From: an uncultured archaeon
GTDB taxonomy: Archaea; Nanobdellota; Nanobdellia; Woesearchaeales; UBA583
Assembly: GCA_937138345.1 (NCBI GenBank)
Contig: CAKZOW010000029.1
Coordinates: 1 to 59,172 of the forward strand
Direction: 5' to 3'
DNA length: 59,172 nucleotides
This document shows positions 1,319-54,974 of this stretch, in pieces. Each line of letters begins with the position of its first letter. Position 1 is the stretch's first letter. A model generated the notes under the pieces. That model had not been told where the DNA came from. It made no database searches and saw nothing but the letters and a program-made list of their open reading frames with translations. A program made the translations under genes and the position numbers.

Positions 1319-1386
1319 AATAACAATCTTTTTAAAGAGAATTTAATATAGTATTTTATACCTCAAATTATATTAATTTACGCCTT

Positions 1387-1471
1387 GTGGGGGTCGCCCA
1401 GTCCGGTCAAAGGCGCAGCCTTGAGGGGGCTGTCTCGTTAGAGTTCGCGGGTTCAAATCCCGTCCCTCACA
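1387..1471 (+). tRNA. tRNA-Leu (anticodon GAG), long variable arm, no encoded CCA
   Basis: Hand-folded cloverleaf. Acceptor GTGGGGG/CCCTCAC, anticodon stem CAGCC/GGCTG with loop TTGAGGG, 14-nt variable arm, T arm GCGGG-TTCAAAT-CCCGT, discriminator A. A T5 run follows. Confidence 0.9.
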
Positions 1472-1488
1472 TTTTTGCGGAGCAAAAA
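1472..1488 (+). terminator. oligo-T plus 7-bp hairpin TTTTTGC-GGA-GCAAAAA immediately after tRNA-Leu
   Basis: Perfect inverted repeat. Nearly the same motif (TTTTTGCAGAGCAAAAAT) follows tRNA-iMet at 28137-28154. Confidence 0.45.
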
Positions 1489-2838: not shown

Positions 2839-3265
2839 TATAATAACAGGAGATGATATTTTAGGAAAAGAAGTATTAGATAACTTTGGAAGGAAAATTG
2901 GAGTAGTTATGAAACTCCACATTGATAGAGAAAAAAGGACACTAACAGGAATCTCAATTGATAGAGGATTTGTGAGTTCTGATATTTTTATAGGATCAGA
3001 TTTTATTAAAACCTTTGGAGTTGATGTAATTATATTATCAAAGTCTCCAGCATTTACTTATGAGGGTTCTAAAGTTTATCGAGAAGATGGAAAATATATT
3101 GGAAAAATTGAAGAAGTTACTTTAAATAGATTAAAACAAATTGATACATTACTTGTAAATACTGATAATAGTATATTAAAAAATAAGACGATTACTATAT
3201 CAAGAAAAGATATTAAAATAATTGGTTTGAGTATTATCTTAAAAAAAAGTTTTGAAATAAATTAA
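2831..3265 (+). CDS. PRC-barrel domain protein (paralogue of the preceding gene)
   Basis: Contains ILGKEVLDNFGRKIGVVMKLHID and GSKVYREDGKYIGKIEEV. Translationally coupled to 2380-2838. Confidence 0.6.
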   Translation: MSDIITGDDILGKEVLDNFGRKIGVVMKLHIDREKRTLTGISIDRGFVSSDIFIGSDFIKTFGVDVIILSKSPAFTYEGSKVYREDGKYIGKIEEVTLNRLKQIDTLLVNTDNSILKNKTITISRKDIKIIGLSIILKKSFEIN

Positions 3266-3305
3266 AATTCTTTAAGTACACAAATTAAAATTTGTTCTCT
3301 TAAAT

Positions 3306-3365
3306 TTAAATTTCACGTTTTACTACTTTATTCATAATTTGGTTAACTACTTGTGGTTTTGCAGG
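3306..3365 (-). pseudogene. displaced second copy of the gatB C-terminal tail (PAKPQVVNQIMNKVVKREI*)
   Basis: Shares a 19-nt identical block plus codon-level similarity with 3420-3476. It is in frame with gatB and ends in TAA. Confidence 0.75.
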
Positions 3366-3419
3366 TGCTTCTGCTGAAGAGCACCCACAGCTGATGTTTC
3401 GCAACTTGTTACTCAAGCA
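3366..3419 (-). other. 54-nt conserved spacer element with a bulged hairpin (AGCA loop) between the two gatB tails
   Basis: The core AGCTGTGGGTGCTCTTCAGCAGAAGCAC (gene strand, 3392-3365) recurs behind mgtE at 54489-54515. GCTTGAGT and GAAAC blocks are also shared. Confidence 0.7.
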
Positions 3420-4811
3420 TCAAAATTCCTTTACTACTTCAAACATGATTTTATTTACTACTTGTGGTTTTGCAGTTCCTTTAGTCTCACGCATTACTAC
3501 TCCTACGATGAAGTTTAATGATTTTGTGTTTCCCCCTTTGTAATCTTCTACTGCTTTTGGATTATCTTGGAGTGCTTTTCTTACTAACTCTTCAATTAGG
3601 GAGTCATCTTGCACTTGAATTAAATTATTTTCTTCAATGTATTGTTTCACATCAAATTTATTTTCATATAATTTCTCAAGTGTTTTTTGAGCTGTTGTGT
3701 ATGAGATTTTATCTTCTCCTAAAAGAGTAATTAATACTGTTACTTCGTCTTTGATATCTTTTGATTCAAGCGTTTCAAATGATTCATTGTGATAGTTTAA
3801 AACTCTTGGTATTTCTCTTCTCAGAAATAGACCAACTTCTCTTGGATTTAATTTTTTCTCAATTGCATATTCAAATACTTCTGAGAGGTACAAGTTTGAT
3901 ACAAGAACTTCAATATCTTCTTTTGATAGATTGTAGTTTGAATATTTTTTTCTCTTCTCTTCAGGTAACTCAGGTAGTGAGTCCTTTAGAGCTTTAATTT
4001 CTTCATCACTAATAATTAAATTAGGTAAATCCGGCTCTGGTGTGAACATGTAATCTTGAGCATTTTCTTTTGATCTCATGAATTGAGTCTCATCTAGCTC
4101 TTCATTATATCTTCGAGTTTGTTGTTCAACTTGCTCCCCATTTGCAATAAGTTCTCTTTGTCTTTTAATTTCAGCCTCAGCTGCTGCAACAATATTTGAA
4201 ATAGAATTCACATTTTTAATTTCAACTCTTGTAAATCCTGATTCTTCAACAGATACATTAACATCAGATTTAATTCCAAAATCTTCATCTAGAGCTCCTA
4301 AGTATTTACCTAAAAGAATTAATTCTTCAAGCCAATCCCTTAGTTGTTCAGTACTCTCAAAATAAGGACCAGTTACAATTTCAGCTAGAGGAAATCCTGC
4401 TCTGTTATAATTTAGCTCACCAGTTTTAGGATCCCAAGCAGCTGGGTTTTCTTCAAGGTGAATCTCTTCCATTTTAATTCCTTTAAATTCTCCACCAATT
4501 GCATTACATTTAACATTACCACCTGATACTGTTCTTTGGTATCCAGTTGGCATATCTGGCCATGTGTAGTGTTTTCTTTGAAAATAGGTTTGGTTTGTAA
4601 TTTTAGCACCCATTGCAAGTCCTAATTTAATTACATGATCAAATGCTCTTTTATTTGGTAGCATTGGTTTTGAACCAGGTTGTCCAGTACACCTAGGACA
4701 AATTGTAGAATTAACTTCACTATCTTGACGAGGTGTTTTACAAGTACAAAATAGTTTTTCTTTAGTTTTTAGATGCATATGGACTTCAAGTCCTATTTTT
4801 ATCTTACCCAT
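3420..4811 (-). CDS. gatB: Asp-tRNA(Asn)/Glu-tRNA(Gln) amidotransferase subunit B
   Basis: N-terminal GLEVHMHL..KLFCTC...CPRC..QPGS and the full-length pattern are typical of GatB. The length (463 aa) fits GatB rather than GatE. Confidence 0.9.
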   Translation of the reverse strand: MGKIKIGLEVHMHLKTKEKLFCTCKTPRQDSEVNSTICPRCTGQPGSKPMLPNKRAFDHVIKLGLAMGAKITNQTYFQRKHYTWPDMPTGYQRTVSGGNVKCNAIGGEFKGIKMEEIHLEENPAAWDPKTGELNYNRAGFPLAEIVTGPYFESTEQLRDWLEELILLGKYLGALDEDFGIKSDVNVSVEESGFTRVEIKNVNSISNIVAAAEAEIKRQRELIANGEQVEQQTRRYNEELDETQFMRSKENAQDYMFTPEPDLPNLIISDEEIKALKDSLPELPEEKRKKYSNYNLSKEDIEVLVSNLYLSEVFEYAIEKKLNPREVGLFLRREIPRVLNYHNESFETLESKDIKDEVTVLITLLGEDKISYTTAQKTLEKLYENKFDVKQYIEENNLIQVQDDSLIEELVRKALQDNPKAVEDYKGGNTKSLNFIVGVVMRETKGTAKPQVVNKIMFEVVKEF

Positions 4812-10328: not shown

Positions 10329-10356
10329 TTATAAATTTTGAATTCTTATTAGTATT

Positions 10357-10833
10357 ATGTCAAATTTTTATTCATTTAAGGCAAAAACTCTCCAAGGAAA
10401 AGAAGTTTCTATGGAAGAATATAAAGATAAAGTAGTTCTGGTTGTAAATACTGCATCTAAATGTGGTTTAACTCCACAATATGAAGGATTGGAAAAATTA
10501 CATAAGGAATATAAAGATAAAGGATTAGTTATTTTGGGATTCCCTTGTAATCAATTTGGAAACCAAGAACCAGGTTCTGAAAAAGATATTAAAGAAGGTT
10601 GTCTTCTAAATTATGGAGTAACATTTCAGATGTTTTCAAAAATTGATGTTAATGGTGAAGACGAACATCCTTTGTATACTTATTTAAAATCTCAAAAGAA
10701 AGGAATGTTTGGTTCTAAGATTAAGTGGAATTTTACTAAGTTTTTAGTTGATAAAAATGGAGATGTTGTAAAAAGATTTTCTCCAACAACAACCCCTGAT
10801 AAGCTAGAAAAAGATATTCAAAAACTTCTTTGA
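10357..10833 (+). CDS. gpx: glutathione peroxidase (Cys-type)
   Basis: Has the canonical Gpx motifs [26 protein letters not shown] and [12 protein letters not shown]. Confidence 0.9.
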
Positions 10834-10882
10834 AGTTTTTGGGACCTTCTTCCAAAGGTATTCAAAAACTTATTTCAAGTTT

Positions 10883-11419
10883 TTATTTAGTGATTAAATA
10901 CACGCTATCATTTACAAGTACATGAAGTTTTCCTTTTTTCTTATCAATAAAATTTGAGGGAGTATAAATCATAAGAGAATTAGATTTTTTATGAAACATT
11001 TGAAGAGCTTCTATAATAAATGGAGTAATCTTTTGAACTTCGTCTTGTTTATTATTTAAGTTTTCTTTTTCAGGATTACTATAGTTTAAATGAAATATGA
11101 TTTTTGAATCACATAGACCTTTAAGGTAATTCATTGTTTCTTCTTCCATTTTTTCTTCTTGTTGTTCATTACAAAAATGTATTAGAGAATCATATGTACT
11201 TGGTTTTGATACTAAAGAGAGAATGATATATTCATCTCTTCTAAATATATGAGTATATGATCCATTTGAATTTTTTTTAGTTTCTAATATAGTATTACCA
11301 ATTTTAACTTTTAATGGATTTGAATTATCAATTTTTATCTCATTATCATCTTTTGTATTGTTTTCTTTCTTATTATTTTTCTTAAATAATGAAAAAAATC
11401 CGTTCTTATTTAATTTCAT
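10883..11419 (-). CDS. hypothetical protein
   Basis: 178-aa ORF in an AT-rich background. No recognisable motif. Confidence 0.45.
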   Translation of the reverse strand: MKLNKNGFFSLFKKNNKKENNTKDDNEIKIDNSNPLKVKIGNTILETKKNSNGSYTHIFRRDEYIILSLVSKPSTYDSLIHFCNEQQEEKMEEETMNYLKGLCDSKIIFHLNYSNPEKENLNNKQDEVQKITPFIIEALQMFHKKSNSLMIYTPSNFIDKKKGKLHVLVNDSVYLITK

Positions 11420-24256: not shown

Positions 24257-24274
24257 TTATATTCAAAATGAATT

Positions 24275-27200
24275 ATGTATTCAAAAAAAGCAATAATACC
24301 TATTATTTCTTTATCACTCCTATTGGTGTTATTAGTTTTGAGTTTTTTTAGTGTTCAGCAATGGTACCTCTCAACACAGAGTTCTTATTTTTCAGATACC
24401 AAAAATGAAATTTCTACAATTTCAGGGAATTTAGAAATTGAAGCTGTTGTTGAAGATGATGTTTATTTTAAATTTGATTCTAATGTAACAATTAATAGAA
24501 TTACTCTAGATTCTGTTGAATGTATTAGTTCTCCAATTAGTGTTGTAGGAATTGAGTCAATAAATATTTCTGATTGTAAATCTCAAATTTCAAAAAGCTC
24601 TGCTCTACTAAGAGTATTTACCGATAATGAAGTACTTGTGAGGACAATTTTTATTGAGCAAGAAATAGATAATACTATTGAAGAAATAATAGTTAGTTCA
24701 GGAAATATCACAGAAATTTTAAATTTAACTGGAGATATTTTATCCTTTTATAATAATTTTAGTTCTTTAAAAATTAAAGATATCTTAATTAACGGGACCT
24801 CAGTTTTAACATATCCTAGAGAGTATACATATTCTTTAGATATTATTTCTAATTCTGGCAATTATAATAGATATTCATGTAACACACAAGTAATTCCAGA
24901 TGATGATGATGATGGAATTTATACTATTTCAGATTTAGGTTTTGATTTTCCTTTTTTTGATTCTATTTTATCTTCGGGAACTCCCTTTTATGTAGATACT
25001 AATGGAAGAATTTCTACAACTGATTCTAGTTCAATTTTTTCACCATCTAATTCAGATTTTTTAAATGATATGAATATAGCTCACTTTTGGAATGATTTAA
25101 CTTTAGATAGTGGGATGTTTGTTTGCAATAATCAAGGCATTTCTCCAAATAAATATACTGTAGTAAAATTTGATTCTTATTGGTATGGAGGATATGGAGA
25201 TACAGATAATGAAGTTATCTTGTACGAGAATGGAACTATTGAGATGAATTATGGTGGATTAGTAACAGATGAATATACTGGAACTTATGTAGGTTTAAGT
25301 GCAGGTGATAGCTCACAATTTACAAATGAAGTTATAGCTGATGCATCAACTCTTGCTAATACTTCTAGGATCTATACTCTTGAAGAACCTACTTTAATTT
25401 ATAATAACGGTACTTATGAAATTAATCTATCTACTTTAGGGATTTTAGATTTAGAGAATGTTATTCAAAATATTACTTTAGTAACTAATCAATCTAATTA
25501 TAGTAAGCTCCTAGATGTTTCAACTCTTTTTGACTCTTGTAGTTTAGACTCAGTTGAAGTTACTCATTTATCTTCATATAATTTTTTTAATTCTGATAAT
25601 GAAGTGTATCCTTCAGTATGTGAGTCTTTACCGAGAACTTGTTATAATGGATTTTTAGGAGGAGATACTTCATATAATTATTCTAGTTGTACCTTGGATA
25701 TATCATCTACTCCTGCAGCTTCTGAGTTTAGGTCAGTTTGGAATACAAATAATACTGGAATTTCTAACTTATCTCAGATTAAGTTGCCTCTAAGAGAATC
25801 AGGTTCATATAATTTTTTAGTTGATTGGGGAGATGGGACTAATGATACTATTACATCTTGGAATCAAAGTGAAATTTTACATACTTATTTGAGTCCAGGT
25901 ATTTATAATGTTACATTAAAAGGATTAGTAAATGGCTTTGGTTTTGAAATTAATAAAAATTTTTTTGATGATATAAAAGATGATGGAGATAAATTACTTG
26001 ATATTACGCAATGGGGGGACCTTAAATTAGGAAATCAGGGTTGGTATTTTTATGGTGCAGAAAATCTTCAGATTAGTGCTCTAGATATACCTGACTTAAC
26101 TACTACAACTAACTTAAGTGGAATGTTTTTTGGAGCTACTTCTTTTAATTCAAATATTAGTCATTGGAATGTTAGTTCAGTTACAGATACGAATAGAATG
26201 TTTATACGAGCTACTTCATTTAATCAATCTTTAGAAAATTGGGATGTGAGTTCTGTTACAGATATGGAGGGCATGTTTGCATTAGCTAGTTCCTTTAACC
26301 AATCACTTAACAATTGGGATGTTAGTTCAGTTACTGATATGGGAGGGATGTTTTCAGAAGCTACTTCATTTAATCAGCCTTTAAATAACTGGGATGTTAG
26401 TTCAGTTACTAATATGTGGAGTATGTTTTTAAGTGCTAATTCTTTTAACCAGCCTTTAAATAGCTGGGACGTTAGTTCAGTTACTGATATGAGTTATATG
26501 TTTTCTACTTCACTCATTATAGATGGATATCAATTTAACCAGCCATTAAATAATTGGAATGTTAGTAGTGTTGAAAATATGAGAGGTATGTTTCAAGGTG
26601 CTGGTTATTTTAATTCAAATATTAGTATCTGGGATGTGGGTAATGTTGAAAATATGGGGGATATGTTTTCTCGTGCTAGTTCCTTTAATCAACCTATTAA
26701 TAGTTGGAATGTTAGTTCAGTTACTAATATGGAGAGTATGTTTTCACAAGCTAGTTCTTTCAATCAACCAATTAATAGTTGGAATGTTAGTTCAGTTACT
26801 GATATGAAGAGTATGTTTTCTCGTGCTAGTTCCTTTAATCAACCTATTAATAGTTGGGATGTAAGTTCAGTTACTAATATGGGGAGTATGTTTAATGGTG
26901 CAACCTCTTTTAATCAACCTTTAAATAGTTGGAATGTTAGTTCAGTAAGGTCTTTTACATATATGTTTTCAGGAGCTACATCTTTTAATCAACCTTTAGA
27001 TAGTTGGGATGTGAGTAATGTTGAAAATATGTTAAGTATGTTTAGGAGTGCTTCATCATTTAATGGAAATATTTCTTCATGGAATACTTCTTCTGTGACT
27101 AGCATGCAGAATATGTTTTGGGACGCAACTTCATTTAATGGGGATATTTCGGAGTGGGATGTTAGTTCAGTTAGAAGTTTTAAAGAAATGTTTAGAAATG

Positions 27201-27625
27201 CTGATTTTTTTAATCAAAACATTAGTGGATGGAATACATCTTCTGCTACAGATATGAATTCAATGTTTGAAAATACAGCAATATTTGATCAAGATTTGAA
27301 CAATTGGGATGTTAGTTCAGTAACTGATATGGGAGGGATGTTTTATGCAACACCAAATTTCAATGGAAATATTTCATCGTGGGATGTTAGTTCTGTTGTT
27401 TTAATGCATGATATGCTCTCGTCTACAGGTTCTTTTAATCAAGATATTAGCGGATGGAATACATCTTCAGCTATAAATATGAACTTTATGTTTTGGAGTG
27501 CAGATGTTTTTAATCAAAATTTATCTTCTTGGGATGTTGATCAAGTAACTGGATGTGGTAACTTTAATACTGATGGAGTTATGAATACATCTTTTATTCC
27601 AAACTTCACTTCATGTACTCAATAA
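24275..27625 (+). CDS. type-IV-pilin-like (class III signal peptide) giant adhesin with 19 DUF285/BspA-like repeats
   Basis: The N-terminus is MYSKKA|[16 protein letters not shown]. It carries 19 copies of a ~25-aa unit FNQ(P/S)(L/I)N.W(D/N)VSSVT.M..MF..A.S. Confidence 0.75.
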
Positions 27626-28039: not shown

Positions 28040-28061
28040 ACATCTTTTATACATATATATT

Positions 28062-28136
28062 AGCGAAGTGGAGCAGCTAGGAGTGCTCGCGGGGCTCATA
28101 ACCCCGAGGTCGTTGGTTCAAATCCAACCTTCGCTA
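28062..28136 (+). tRNA. initiator-type tRNA-Met (CAT)
   Basis: Hand-folded cloverleaf. Acceptor AGCGAAG/CTTCGCT (A1:U72), anticodon stem CGGGG/CCCCG with loop CTCATAA, T arm GTTGG-TTCAAAT-CCAAC, discriminator A. Confidence 0.9.
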
Positions 28137-28164
28137 TTTTTGCAGAGCAAAAATTGCTCTTTTT
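28137..28164 (+). terminator. T-run plus hairpins (TTTTTGC-AGA-GCAAAAA and AGAGCAA-AAA-TTGCTCT followed by TTTT) after tRNA-iMet
   Basis: Inverted repeats read directly from the sequence. The first motif is shared with the tRNA-Leu trailer. Confidence 0.5.
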
Positions 28165-53176: not shown

Positions 53177-54439
53177 ATGGAAAAACCTCAAAGCAATAAT
53201 CCAATTTCACATTATGTTGATATGGTTCTTAATAGCGATGAGGCTTACAAAGAATTCTTACGAGTGCCGCTTGAGAGACAAGCAATGGTTTTTTTAGATT
53301 TGCCAGGTGATTTTCAAAAAAAATTTGGTGATGATTTATCAGTTAATTATATTTTATCATTATTTAAATTTTTAGACCCCGATGAAATTACTGATTTCCT
53401 ACAGCATTTACCTGAAGAAAAACATAATCAGGTTGCTAAAAAATTAGATGAGAATTTAAAAGAAAAAGTAGATTATCTACTTAAATTCGATCCTAATTCT
53501 GCAGCGGGTCTTATGAATTTAGATTACGTTATTGTTTTCAAGCACTCAAAAGTTGAGACTCTCTATAATAAATTGAAAAAGACTTATGCTAGAAAAAAAA
53601 CAACACCTATTGTTTTAGTTAGAGATAAGGAAAATCACTTAATTGGCCATATTCCTTTTGAGCATTTCATTTTACATAGACCTCATTCTTTAGAACATGT
53701 AATTGAAGATATTCCATTTGTATATTATGATGAACACTATGATGATGTTATTAAAAAATTTAATTCAACAGATCATAAAAATTTAGTTGTAGTTGATTAT
53801 GAGAATCATATTTTAGGTGTTATTGAAACAAATGACTTGTTAAAAAGAATTGAAGAGAGTACAACAGAAGATGTATATGGTCTTGCAGGAGTAAATAAGG
53901 AAGAGGATATTTTAGATAGTGGTTGGTCTAAATTTAAATCTCGGTATTTGTGGTTAATTTTAAATTTATTTACAGCATTTTTAGCAGCAGGAATTGTTTC
54001 ACTTTTTGAAGATACTTTAACTAAATTAGTTTTGCTTGCAGTTTATATGCCAATTATTGCTGGAATGGGAGGTAATGCTGCAACTCAGACATTGGCAGTT
54101 GTTGTTAGGGGAATATCAACTCACGAAATTGATGCTAAAACTAAATTAAGAGTATTAGGTAATGAGCTTTTTGCCGGAACGCTCAATGGTTTTGTTAACG
54201 GAATAATAGTTGCAATTATCGCGTACTTTTGGAACGATATGCCAATGCTTGGAGTAGTTGTTGGATTATCTATGGTAATTAATTTATTCATTGCCGGTTT
54301 TTTTGGAACAATTCTACCTTTTATCTTAGATAGATTCAAAATAGATCCAGCAGTTGCAGCAACTGTATTTGTAACAACAGCCACAGATGTGGTTGGTTTC
54401 TTTGTTTTCCTAGGTCTAGCAGAGATATTGTTGTTATAA
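53177..54439 (+). CDS. mgtE: magnesium transporter MgtE
   Basis: Has an N-domain, a CBS pair and a TM domain with AGMGGNAATQTLAVVVRGI and ATDVVGFFVFLGLA. Confidence 0.9.
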   Translation: MEKPQSNNPISHYVDMVLNSDEAYKEFLRVPLERQAMVFLDLPGDFQKKFGDDLSVNYILSLFKFLDPDEITDFLQHLPEEKHNQVAKKLDENLKEKVDYLLKFDPNSAAGLMNLDYVIVFKHSKVETLYNKLKKTYARKKTTPIVLVRDKENHLIGHIPFEHFILHRPHSLEHVIEDIPFVYYDEHYDDVIKKFNSTDHKNLVVVDYENHILGVIETNDLLKRIEESTTEDVYGLAGVNKEEDILDSGWSKFKSRYLWLILNLFTAFLAAGIVSLFEDTLTKLVLLAVYMPIIAGMGGNAATQTLAVVVRGISTHEIDAKTKLRVLGNELFAGTLNGFVNGIIVAIIAYFWNDMPMLGVVVGLSMVINLFIAGFFGTILPFILDRFKIDPAVAATVFVTTATDVVGFFVFLGLAEILLL

Positions 54440-54440
54440 T

Positions 54441-54460
54441 AGAGATATTGTTGTTATAAT
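54441..54460 (+). repeat. exact 20-bp tandem duplicate of the mgtE end (AGAGATATTGTTGTTATAAT)
   Basis: 54421-54440 and 54441-54460 are identical. Confidence 0.95.
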
Positions 54461-54465
54461 TATTA

Positions 54466-54515
54466 GAGCTTGAGTGAAACGAAACTCTAGCTGTGGGTGG
54501 CTTCAGCAGAAGCAC
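54466..54515 (+). other. conserved spacer element with a bulged hairpin (AGCA loop), second copy
   Basis: GCTTGAGT..GAAAC..AGCTGTGGGTGGCTTCAGCAGAAGCAC. The same blocks occur in the same order and orientation relative to the host gene as at 3366-3419. Confidence 0.7.
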
Positions 54516-54522
54516 GTTGCGG

Positions 54523-54564
54523 TTCTTTGTATTCTTAGGTCTAGCAGAGATATTGTTGTTGTAA
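54523..54564 (+). pseudogene. displaced copy of the mgtE C-terminal tail (FFVFLGLAEILLL*)
   Basis: 42 nt aligned to 54398-54439 with 3 differences, all synonymous (GTT/GTA, CTA/TTA, TTA/TTG). Confidence 0.8.
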
Positions 54565-54677
54565 AATCCATTCGACCAAAAATCTATGATTTTTGAGTTA
54601 TTAGAATTAGTAGAACTAGTTGTTTTATTGTTTTATCTAGTAGTAATATTTTTAAATGCGTTTTGACATTATTTCTT

Positions 54678-54974
54678 ATGTCATCAATGAGTTCATTATT
54701 TTTAGAAGAACAAATTCTTATTTTAGCACAAAAATATAAAGATAATAATTACAATCATTTTCTACTACAATATATTGATCCTTCTAAAAATACTATTGAT
54801 TTATTTTCTTTAAGAAAAGAAGTACCAATTAATCTACGATCATCATTTAAAAATACTTTACTACACACTTACGATGTTTTATCTATCCACTATAGTAGAA
54901 CTGAGGGTAAAAGAAAACTATCACATTTAACAGAGGGAAGTCCAGAATCATTTGGCTTCCCATCTAAATTTTAA
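54678..54974 (+). CDS. hypothetical protein
   Basis: ORF of ~98 aa with no motif. Weak call. Confidence 0.25.
   Translation: MSSMSSLFLEEQILILAQKYKDNNYNHFLLQYIDPSKNTIDLFSLRKEVPINLRSSFKNTLLHTYDVLSIHYSRTEGKRKLSHLTEGSPESFGFPSKF

Follow-up and report, generated by a model that had tools for sequence, protein, structure and literature searches.

A short two-hairpin element between duplicated gene ends in a marine nanoarchaeon: candidate gene-end replacement cassettes at mgtE and gatB

Duplication of a carboxy-terminal coding region by a mobile open reading frame (mORF) encoding a homing endonuclease has been described for atp6 of Allomyces macrogynus and for atp6, atp9, cox2 and nad3 of Glomus (PMC3630166). 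In these hybrid genes of fungal mitochondria the gene body is followed by an inserted foreign C-terminus, the mobile element and the displaced native C*-terminus, and the gene remains intact. Site-specific integrative elements at the 3' ends of tRNA or protein genes, and the decayed cis-mobilizable elements (CIMEs) derived from them, likewise supply a replacement 3' end, are flanked by direct repeats (attL and attR), accumulate at one end of a gene and are found as empty and filled alleles (PMC5704250). Both layouts recur at the 3' ends of mgtE and gatB on a 59,172-nt contig (CAKZOW010000029.1; 'the window' below means this whole stretch), which comes from a marine, nano-sized archaeon of the DPANN group (Nanoarchaeota). 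In each of the two genes a non-coding, G+C-rich element of two hairpins, about 52-65 nt long, stands between two copies of the gene's own end. We regard the unit formed by the first copy and the element, with a probability of roughly 0.55, as an ORF-less and non-autonomous 'gene-end replacement cassette' that has spread as a family in marine Nanoarchaeota. The genomes of DPANN archaea are tiny and streamlined, and very little is known about their mobile DNA.

The G+C content of the window is 28%. Its MgtE and GatB proteins are 97% identical in amino acid sequence to those of the Nanoarchaeota metagenome-assembled genome (MAG) DS_MAG177, the source of the comparison loci L003 (mgtE) and L069 (gatB), and the next nearest relatives are Woesearchaeota and Nanoarchaeia; L-numbers denote DNA loci from other assemblies throughout. 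The mgtE gene (420 aa; Pfam MgtE_N, CBS and MgtE) occupies 53177..54439 of the plus strand. The first, functional copy of its end lies at 54396..54439, with the coding part TTC TTT GTT TTC CTA GGT CTA GCA GAG ATA TTG TTG TTA TAA at 54398-54439. It is followed by the repeat of an exact 20-bp tandem unit, AGAGATATTGTTGTTATAAT (54421-54440 = 54441-54460), and by the two-hairpin element at 54464..54515. A junction, GTTGCGG (54516..54522), comes next; it is imperfectly homologous to GTTGGTT, the stretch of the gene that immediately precedes the duplicate, and is unchanged in three further alleles (L104, L111 and L112). The second copy of the end, with the same 13 codons and stop, closes the arrangement at 54523..54564. 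The two tails are identical at 39 of 42 bases and both encode FFVFLGLAEILLL*; their three differences (functional/displaced T/A, C/T and A/G) are all synonymous. In all these particulars the original prediction, which had been made by reading the letters of the window, holds base for base. Its statement that the mgtE end is present three times is right for two full ends, whereas the third is only a partial copy, namely the 20-bp tandem unit, a secondary duplication that is polymorphic.

Which of the two tails is the newcomer can be read from relatives in which the site is empty. In L003 a single tail is followed by the flank that, in the window, is contiguous with the displaced copy. Because such relatives have one tail and then the same flank, the second tail is the old resident end, pushed downstream and no longer read, and the inserted DNA consists of the first tail and the spacer. 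The codons GTA and TTA are common to the displaced tail and L003, where the functional tail has GTT and CTA; the latter two are derived synonymous states, found neither in the displaced copy nor in L003 or the filled allele L111. In L111, an NCBI MAG 97.5% identical to the window, the functional and displaced tails differ at the last codon alone (TTA versus TTG, 1 in 42 nt), which means that, of the three differences in the window, two are later changes of the functional copy and are what purifying selection allows. The inference that synonymous-only differences betray two coding copies needs refinement: the displaced tail is a former functional end, collinear with the empty allele, but its current translation finds no support; it lies out of frame with mgtE and behind several stop codons. 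The insertion itself, a surrogate copy of the last 42-49 nt including the stop and the 52-nt element (about 59 nt with flanking bases), is 105 bp long, and 125 bp in this strain through the later 20-bp tandem duplication. In the ancestral downstream flank a hairpin followed by T5 (CCAAAAATCTATGATTTTTG; window 54565-54600) is kept in the empty-site relative and is probably the original mgtE terminator, in which case the element and the displaced tail would sit within the 3' untranslated region (UTR) of mgtE.

Allele DNA was drawn from many independent assemblies, reached through the protein clusters that hold the window's GatB and MgtE, and the mgtE site is polymorphic in these natural populations. 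It is empty in L003 and in six other assemblies (L105-L110), filled without the 20-bp duplication in L111, and filled as in the window, at 99.6% identity, in L112; L104, from TARA, carries two tandem elements. The 20-bp unit is duplicated in L112 and single in L111 and L104. Truncated forms exist as well: L102 and L103 (2628-2703 in each), in which mgtE itself is intact, and L113 keep only the 5' module of the element, and all three are without the 3' module, the displaced tail and the neighbouring ORF of 98-103 aa (window 54663-54974). For L113 the gene call gives mgtE 454 aa, even though its DNA contains the TAA stop. Counting the window, the filled arrangement recurs in at least four independent assemblies for mgtE and in at least seven for gatB.

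The gatB locus, on the minus strand, shows the same layout in a more layered form. Its coding sequence (3420..4811; 463 aa) ends in a surrogate tail, AKPQVVNKIMFEVVKEF* (3420..3473), whose TGA stop falls inside the outer helix of a second copy of the two-hairpin element (3365..3422; outer helix TGATG/CATCA), and this copy is followed by CT. The displaced gatB end (3306..3362) is nearly identical to the functional end of L069, which has a single tail and then a flank corresponding to that of the window. Inside the displaced tail lies an older layer (3262..3305), which combines a 26-nt hairpin spacer with 18 nt left over from the oldest gatB end (GTACTTAAAGAATTTTAA); this layer is missing from L069, L096 and L097-L100. 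Across the whole gene, identity to L069 is 91.9% in nucleotides and 97.4% in amino acids; the displaced tail matches that of L069 at 44 of 45 positions and the functional tail at 44 of 54. Functional and displaced tails differ from each other at 9-10 of 54 positions, three residues included. The first 17 nt of the two gatB tails are identical and every difference lies 3' of them, a distribution found also in L090 (below) and in mgtE.

Population alleles of gatB form a series. The site is empty in L069 and L096; four samples of a second lineage, lineage B (L097-L100), have one layer with the ancestral displaced tail intact; and the window and L101 have one layer plus the older 44-nt piece inside the displaced tail. 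A third and newest layer, in L095, is an unrelated 97-nt element with another copy of the tail at about the same boundary (GAACT|GCAAAACC), and it sits upstream of what had been the functional tail; wherever layers are stacked, the newest adjoins the gene. The newest L095 element (L095 1513-1609; GACAAAAATACATAGTATTTTGTC...GTTCAAAGTGAACT) contains CTTGAG and ends in a hairpin adjoining the displaced copy. A further locus from a more distant genome, L077 (4290-4900), whose gatB is 73% identical to that of the window, has at least three tail copies with two different boundaries, separated by two related spacers of 90-100 nt that belong to a third family; a run of N interrupts this locus.

In this strain the gatB stop is supplied by the element, the TGA being part of the outer helix TGATG (window 3418-3422, minus strand). 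Lineage B alleles retain their own TAA and eight more nucleotides before the element, and an 8-nt deletion in the window and L101 made the element's TGA the stop. Readthrough in frame across the gatB unit was considered and rejected: the unit is 111 nt long and in frame, but that of lineage B is 119 nt, and the reading frame is preserved by coincidence. Two gatB body types have the ending NKIMFEVVKEF, and the element is present in every such allele of which the DNA was read, while the three alleles read for the ending NQIMNKVVKEF are either empty or the displaced copy. In these sequences the gatB surrogate tail travels with the element. Recombination also breaks at this point: identity between L096 and the window is 98.3% as far as the end of gatB and falls to 90.5% beyond it (around L096 4330-4393), and the switch, exactly at the gene end, indicates homologous recombination between lineages with its breakpoint at the insertion site.

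The spacers of mgtE and gatB, on opposite strands, share GCTTGAGT, CGAAAC, AGCTGTGGGTG and CTTCAGCAGAAGCAC in that order and differ by a bulge, G in one copy and CT in the other; reading both loci bore out the original prediction on each of these points. The element is built of an outer 5-bp helix, an internal loop (CTTGA/GAAA), a variable inner hairpin, a linker (GCTGTGG), hairpin 2 (GTG-(1-2 nt bulge)-CTTC AGCA GAAG CAC) and 0-7 nt before the displaced end. In mgtE the outer helix pairs 54464-68 with 54485-89 around the internal loop, the inner hairpin lies at 54474-80, the linker at 54490-96 and hairpin 2 at 54497-54515 (GTG-G-CTTC AGCA GAAG CAC). Copies reach 45-49% G+C in the 28% genome, the mgtE copy having 0.45 against 0.28 for the window. 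Variants with GTTGTGGGTG, with GCCGTGGGTG and with the loop AGCC were also noted.

A single scan of metagenome data for the 3' motif yielded three more contigs, so the two loci of the window are not the only copies. In L087 the element follows the RNase HII gene (rnhB), with a duplicated gene end of 58 nt that is 100% identical; in L089 it follows a histone-fold gene, as two tandem units of 89 nt, each ending in a copy of a 17-nt gene end; and in L090 it follows a gene cut off at the edge of the locus, with a duplicate of 57 nt whose four differences all fall at third codon positions. In all three the element begins 0-15 nt after the stop codon and a second copy of the gene end comes after it. 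Its 3' end is sharply defined and its 5' junction varies by 0-14 nt. Apart from the element, blastn revealed no similarity between the window and these contigs, and the element has thus moved between genomes.

All five pairs of the outer helix show compensatory changes (TAGAG/CTCTA, TGATG/CATCA, GAG/CTC, AAGTT/AACTT and AAGC/GCTT). In this helix 93.9% of cells are paired, as against 30-50% in slid controls, and none of 500 shuffles reaches the observed score. Folds of single sequences show no significant gain in stability over shuffles (z = -0.5 to -1.8), and it is the covariation that carries the case for the structure. A covariance model built from the copies (R1) scores the mgtE element at 74.7 bits and the gatB element at 79.2 bits and recovers the element in population alleles as well; in about 350 kb of related DNA it found no copies beyond the known loci. 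Seven variants were also realigned with MAFFT, but the 5' module was misplaced and the alignment was discarded.

The likeness of the two loci in the window exceeds what chance would produce. Each long shared motif occurs in the 59 kb at the mgtE and gatB sites only, against about 0.2 occurrences expected, and a blastn comparison of spacer with spacer gives E = 0.005 in a 0.56-Mb database. Among 518 ORF ends of the window and related archaeal loci, four have a downstream copy of their last 27 nt at 24 of 27 or better; mgtE is one (26/27), and another is a repeat within a protein and not a gene-end copy. The maximum of the in-gene control was 20 of 27. Together with the empty sites, the other contigs, the outer-helix covariation and the polymorphism in populations, these figures uphold the proposal that a mobile or templated mechanism, and not random duplication, produced the arrangement. 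The grounds for refutation named with the original prediction do not apply: copies number more than two, and independent assemblies repeat the arrangement.

Other searches returned little. Exact 22-nt and relaxed patterns met only chance matches inside bacterial genes among GTDB species representatives (L001 and L092-L094), none or a single chance match among IMG/VR viral contigs (L091), and nothing in phage and plasmid collections. In Rfam 15, searched with its hammerhead, twister, pistol, hatchet and hepatitis delta virus (HDV)-like ribozymes and its C/D box small RNAs (sRNAs), only two tRNAs reached the gathering score in the window, and nothing meaningful appeared at E <= 10 in the mgtE or gatB locus. 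A literature search for the element motifs returned only unrelated primers.

The layout of a duplicated gene end with a spacer is general in this genome. Downstream of tRNA-Leu(GAG) (window 1386-1472) lie two different inserts of 101 and 77 nt, in a region extending to 1696, and both close with a repeat of the tRNA's final 19-21 nt, so that copies stand at 1454, 1576 and 1674. Of these inserts, lineage B (L097-L100) has just the older, distal one, whose repeat has decayed, and DS_MAG177 has neither and carries about 650 nt of other DNA instead. After tRNA-Met(CAT) (28061-28137, region to 28256) a 99-nt insert precedes a decayed copy of the 3' end (CAAATCCAACCTTTAATA), whose three changes are all GC to AT; the insert begins TTTTTGCAGAGCAAAAAT and resembles in this the proximal tRNA-Leu insert (TTTTTGCGGAGCAAAAAT). 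Short blastn with these tRNA-type spacers gave noise only. A glutathione-peroxidase gene (10342-10833) has its end repeated 44 nt downstream, matching at 28 of 31 positions, with a 13-nt spacer, GGGACCTTCTTCC (window 10807-10884). In every event seen the 3' edge of the duplicate falls 0-15 nt beyond a stop codon or coincides with a tRNA 3' end. Duplicates measure from 17 to about 65 nt in the two-hairpin family and more than 80 nt at most in other families, and the spacers, of 13-104 nt, are without an ORF.

Cassettes sit at gene 3' ends in sense orientation. The sequences themselves establish the insertion and its polarity, movement between genomes, polymorphism in populations, stacking and covariation of the helix. 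As regards the recombination route, a trans-acting factor and the initial capture of a new gene end, we infer the following. The gene-end copy carried by a cassette would recombine with the resident gene end, either by a Campbell-type single crossover of a looped-out unit or by a double crossover of a linear donor fragment, for which the gene body and the duplicated tail would serve as homology arms. The crossover would fall where the two copies are identical, by the 5' edge of the duplicate. The gene would thereby stay intact and the resident end become a downstream repeat, and two repeats would in turn permit loss, tandem amplification, further stacking and transfer between lineages. The hairpin module by the junction is probably recognised by an enzyme supplied in trans, or may be needed as a structure in a single-stranded or RNA state. 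The unit is taken to be non-autonomous because no recombinase, transposase, reverse transcriptase or nuclease gene was found among the approximately 50 ORFs of the window by a Pfam scan, a result that applies to these ORFs. A surrogate end carried by the unit is preferred to a randomly placed target-site duplication for two reasons: the duplicates end 0-15 nt from a stop or at a tRNA 3' end, and the functional tail of gatB is far more diverged than the displaced one.

Several observations weigh against a cassette that carries its own surrogate end. The same lack of recombination genes in the window leaves it without a visible motor, and searches of IMG/VR, of phage and plasmid collections and of GTDB representatives turned up no larger element that could be its parent. 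One module stands on five unrelated gene ends with no shared core, an arrangement that is not accounted for by site-specific integration of the classical type; DNA of about 110 bp does not readily form a double-stranded circle, and excised copies were not seen. Hairpin 2 is invariant and shows no covariation, the copies from other genomes having been found with a pattern that fixes its sequence. The identical 58-nt copies of L087 and the single tail difference of L111 fit duplication in situ equally well, and frequent homologous recombination between lineages weakens arguments from the divergence of a 'foreign' tail. Dating in-situ against imported tails by their divergence was itself set aside as unreliable, given the breakpoint at the site in L096.

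The last of these points lead directly to the most serious competitor, which we judge unlikely without dismissing it: transposition resembling that of miniature inverted-repeat transposable elements (MITEs) or short interspersed nuclear elements (SINEs), with long staggered cuts or target-primed synthesis, so that the tails are a target-site duplication made in situ and identical at insertion. Only insertions with a stop codon in the duplication would then survive, and later differences would reflect drift and recombination. Besides the L087 copies, such a process accounts for L111, where the tails differ at 1 of 42 nt and the window's other two differences are later, for duplicates of 44-65 nt at four of the five loci of the family, and for an element with a sharp 3' end and a 5' junction varying by 0-14 nt. 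It sits less easily with duplicate lengths that range from 17 to about 65 nt in one family and exceed 80 nt in others, or with the scan that found neither a reverse transcriptase nor a transposase among the window ORFs. That every duplicate's 3' edge should lie 0-15 nt from a stop or tRNA end is improbable for random duplications of about 57 nt (by a rough estimate for five loci about 10^-3 or less, and lower when the tRNA and stacked events are included), and the 9-10 differences in 54 positions between the gatB tails, three residues among them, with the displaced tail matching the empty allele at 44 of 45, are hard to reconcile with copies identical at birth. Improbable, in our estimation, is an origin as CIME-like scars, in which larger integrase-encoding elements integrated at gene 3' ends and were mostly deleted, leaving attL, a short remainder and attR. 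Surrogate 3' end, insert and original 3' end, in that order, make up the classical signature of attL and attR, the T-loop is where the tRNA duplicates begin, as at many integrase sites, and tandem accretion at one gene end has been described for CIMEs and for integrative and mobilizable elements (IMEs) (PMC5704250). Against this, the module of about 55 nt is preserved complete, its helices covarying and without variable deletion endpoints, at five independent loci on five different target genes; no spacer contains a gene fragment, and the collections searched (GTDB representatives, IMG/VR, phages and plasmids) held no parent.

A function for the host, rather than for the element, deserves consideration on account of its fold. 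The element is always in sense orientation in the 3' untranslated region and could act there as an RNA structure for stability, processing or protein binding, or as an alternative gene end kept in store, and would have spread through duplication and recombination of the ordinary kind. Covariation of the helix implies selection on the fold, a U-G pair in the inner helix of gatB would be a C-A mismatch on the other strand, and the internal loop CUUGA/GAAA has the potential for tandem G-A pairs; a kink-turn (K-turn) reading would need two extra A residues on the non-bulged strand. Against this, presence and absence among near-identical strains mark the element as dispensable, the genes that carry it have housekeeping functions and are unrelated to one another, L102 and L103 have a truncated copy beside an intact mgtE, no Rfam family matches it, and the duplicated gene ends and their stacking are left unexplained; we rate the idea as quite improbable. 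Least credible of all is that the arrangement arose in assembly, a de Bruijn graph having strung strain variants together in series, or that it is a local duplication due to chance. The sequences do come from metagenome assemblies of strain mixtures, and the L104 contig ends inside the second copy of its element, but the same arrangement is found across projects and assemblers (the window, L111, L112, the TARA locus L104, L095 and L097-L101) and the element also occurs at other genes in other organisms, while the motif counts and the control on 518 ORF ends speak against chance duplication.

A number of narrower readings were tried and abandoned. An RNA-guided system, in which the displaced tail is the guide of a nuclease and the surrogate is recoded to escape it, is contradicted by the identical copies of L087 and by the copy 3' of the scaffold being the resident and not the imported one. 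CUUGA...GAAA resembles a hammerhead core but, as read from the sequence, is without two core bases and the three-way topology. For an archaeal bulge-helix-bulge intron, in which a 4-bp helix separates two 3-nt bulges at the splice junctions, hairpin 2 offers a 4-bp helix but a bulge of 1-2 nt and a 4-nt loop, and inspection of the folds revealed no junction pairing. An integron attC has inverted core sites, RYYYAAC and GTTRRRY, around an imperfect hairpin after a cassette ORF; the GTTGCGG that might recall it follows the hairpin only in the mgtE copy, the others having CT, TGTGTG or nothing at that place. Pattern scans gave single copies or one tandem of two units and never arrays, unlike CRISPR repeats. 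The hairpins are internal and there are no terminal inverted repeats, and the duplicates vary between 17 and 65 nt instead of being short and fixed as in a MITE proper. Readthrough of TGA under genetic code 4 or 25 is excluded, since table 11 already tiles the window with ORFs.

Two further features of the data deserve mention. Within a 1117-aa ORF (window 24272-27625), which encodes a repetitive surface-type protein, about 12 or more repeats with a period of 75 nt occupy 26068-27496. The contigs of eight loci (L005, L070, L071, L086 [CAXPJQ01...], L073, L077, L081 and L085) are labelled Bdellovibrionales or Methanosarcinales; their gatB or mgtE genes are 62-90% identical to those of the window, and they are probably mis-binned DPANN contigs.

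The picture that emerges is of a dense and active layer of gene-less insertions of about 100 bp at the 3' ends of the essential genes gatB, mgtE, tRNA-Leu and tRNA-Met, which they rewrite without breaking the gene. The insertions vary between strains that are 97-99% identical and also mark recombination breakpoints. They can change the C-terminus of a protein, as the three residues in GatB illustrate, and the gatB stop of this strain even comes from the element; their stacked pseudo-ends can mislead annotation and strain typing. If targeting rests on the carried copy of the gene end, cassettes would constitute a minimal and re-targetable insertion system, an ORF-less counterpart of the homing-endonuclease gene hybrids of fungal mitochondria. 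A bolder extension, which we put forward tentatively and with the odds against it, is that they represent an undescribed class of archaeal mobile DNA, in which a module of about 55 nt, active as single-stranded DNA or RNA, is combined with a captured gene end that provides both the targeting homology and the replacement coding end. By capturing a new end, one module might then be directed to any other gene or tRNA, and several families might stack at conserved DPANN gene ends, mobilised by a host or helper enzyme other than a classical integrase. There is a fair chance that a distinct class will be recognised once the mobilising activity is found.

Comparison with described systems sharpens both the likenesses and the differences. 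The double-hairpin elements of Allomyces mitochondrial DNA (Paquin, Laforest and Lang, 2000) are reportedly not flanked by duplicated gene ends. These MITE-like elements are said to be likewise short and G+C-rich in an A+T-rich genome, with two stem-loops, compensatory changes and presence or absence between relatives, and the archaeal element bears no sequence relation to them. Diversity-generating retroelements, with a variable repeat (VR) at the 3' end of a gene and a template repeat (TR) nearby, also present two close copies of a 3' end and a hairpin after the coding copy. The differences between the archaeal copies are not adenine-specific, however (one of the three in mgtE has A in the non-coding copy), the window holds no reverse transcriptase, and the targets here are housekeeping proteins whose encoded ends are identical.

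In its dynamics, the closest analogue is site-specific integration at gene 3' ends, followed by CIME decay and tandem accretion (PMC5704250). Unlike integrative elements and CIMEs, the archaeal units measure 90-125 bp and contain no integrase or gene remnants, and no single att core is evident, the module being joined to the ends of mgtE, gatB, rnhB, the histone gene and the gene of L090. The newest layer lies nearest the gene here, whereas accretion of streptococcal IMEs and CIMEs has been described at attR (PMC5704250). In its layout, the closest analogue is the fungal mitochondrial mobile-ORF gene hybrid. In both, the native end is closer to relatives than the inserted end, as seen here for gatB (44/45 versus 44/54). 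The fungal elements carry an endonuclease ORF of several hundred base pairs that drives their mobility, whereas the archaeal element comprises 52-65 nt and no ORF; and, unlike the fungal hybrids, it resides on an archaeal chromosome in which the same layout is found also at tRNA genes, with other spacers.

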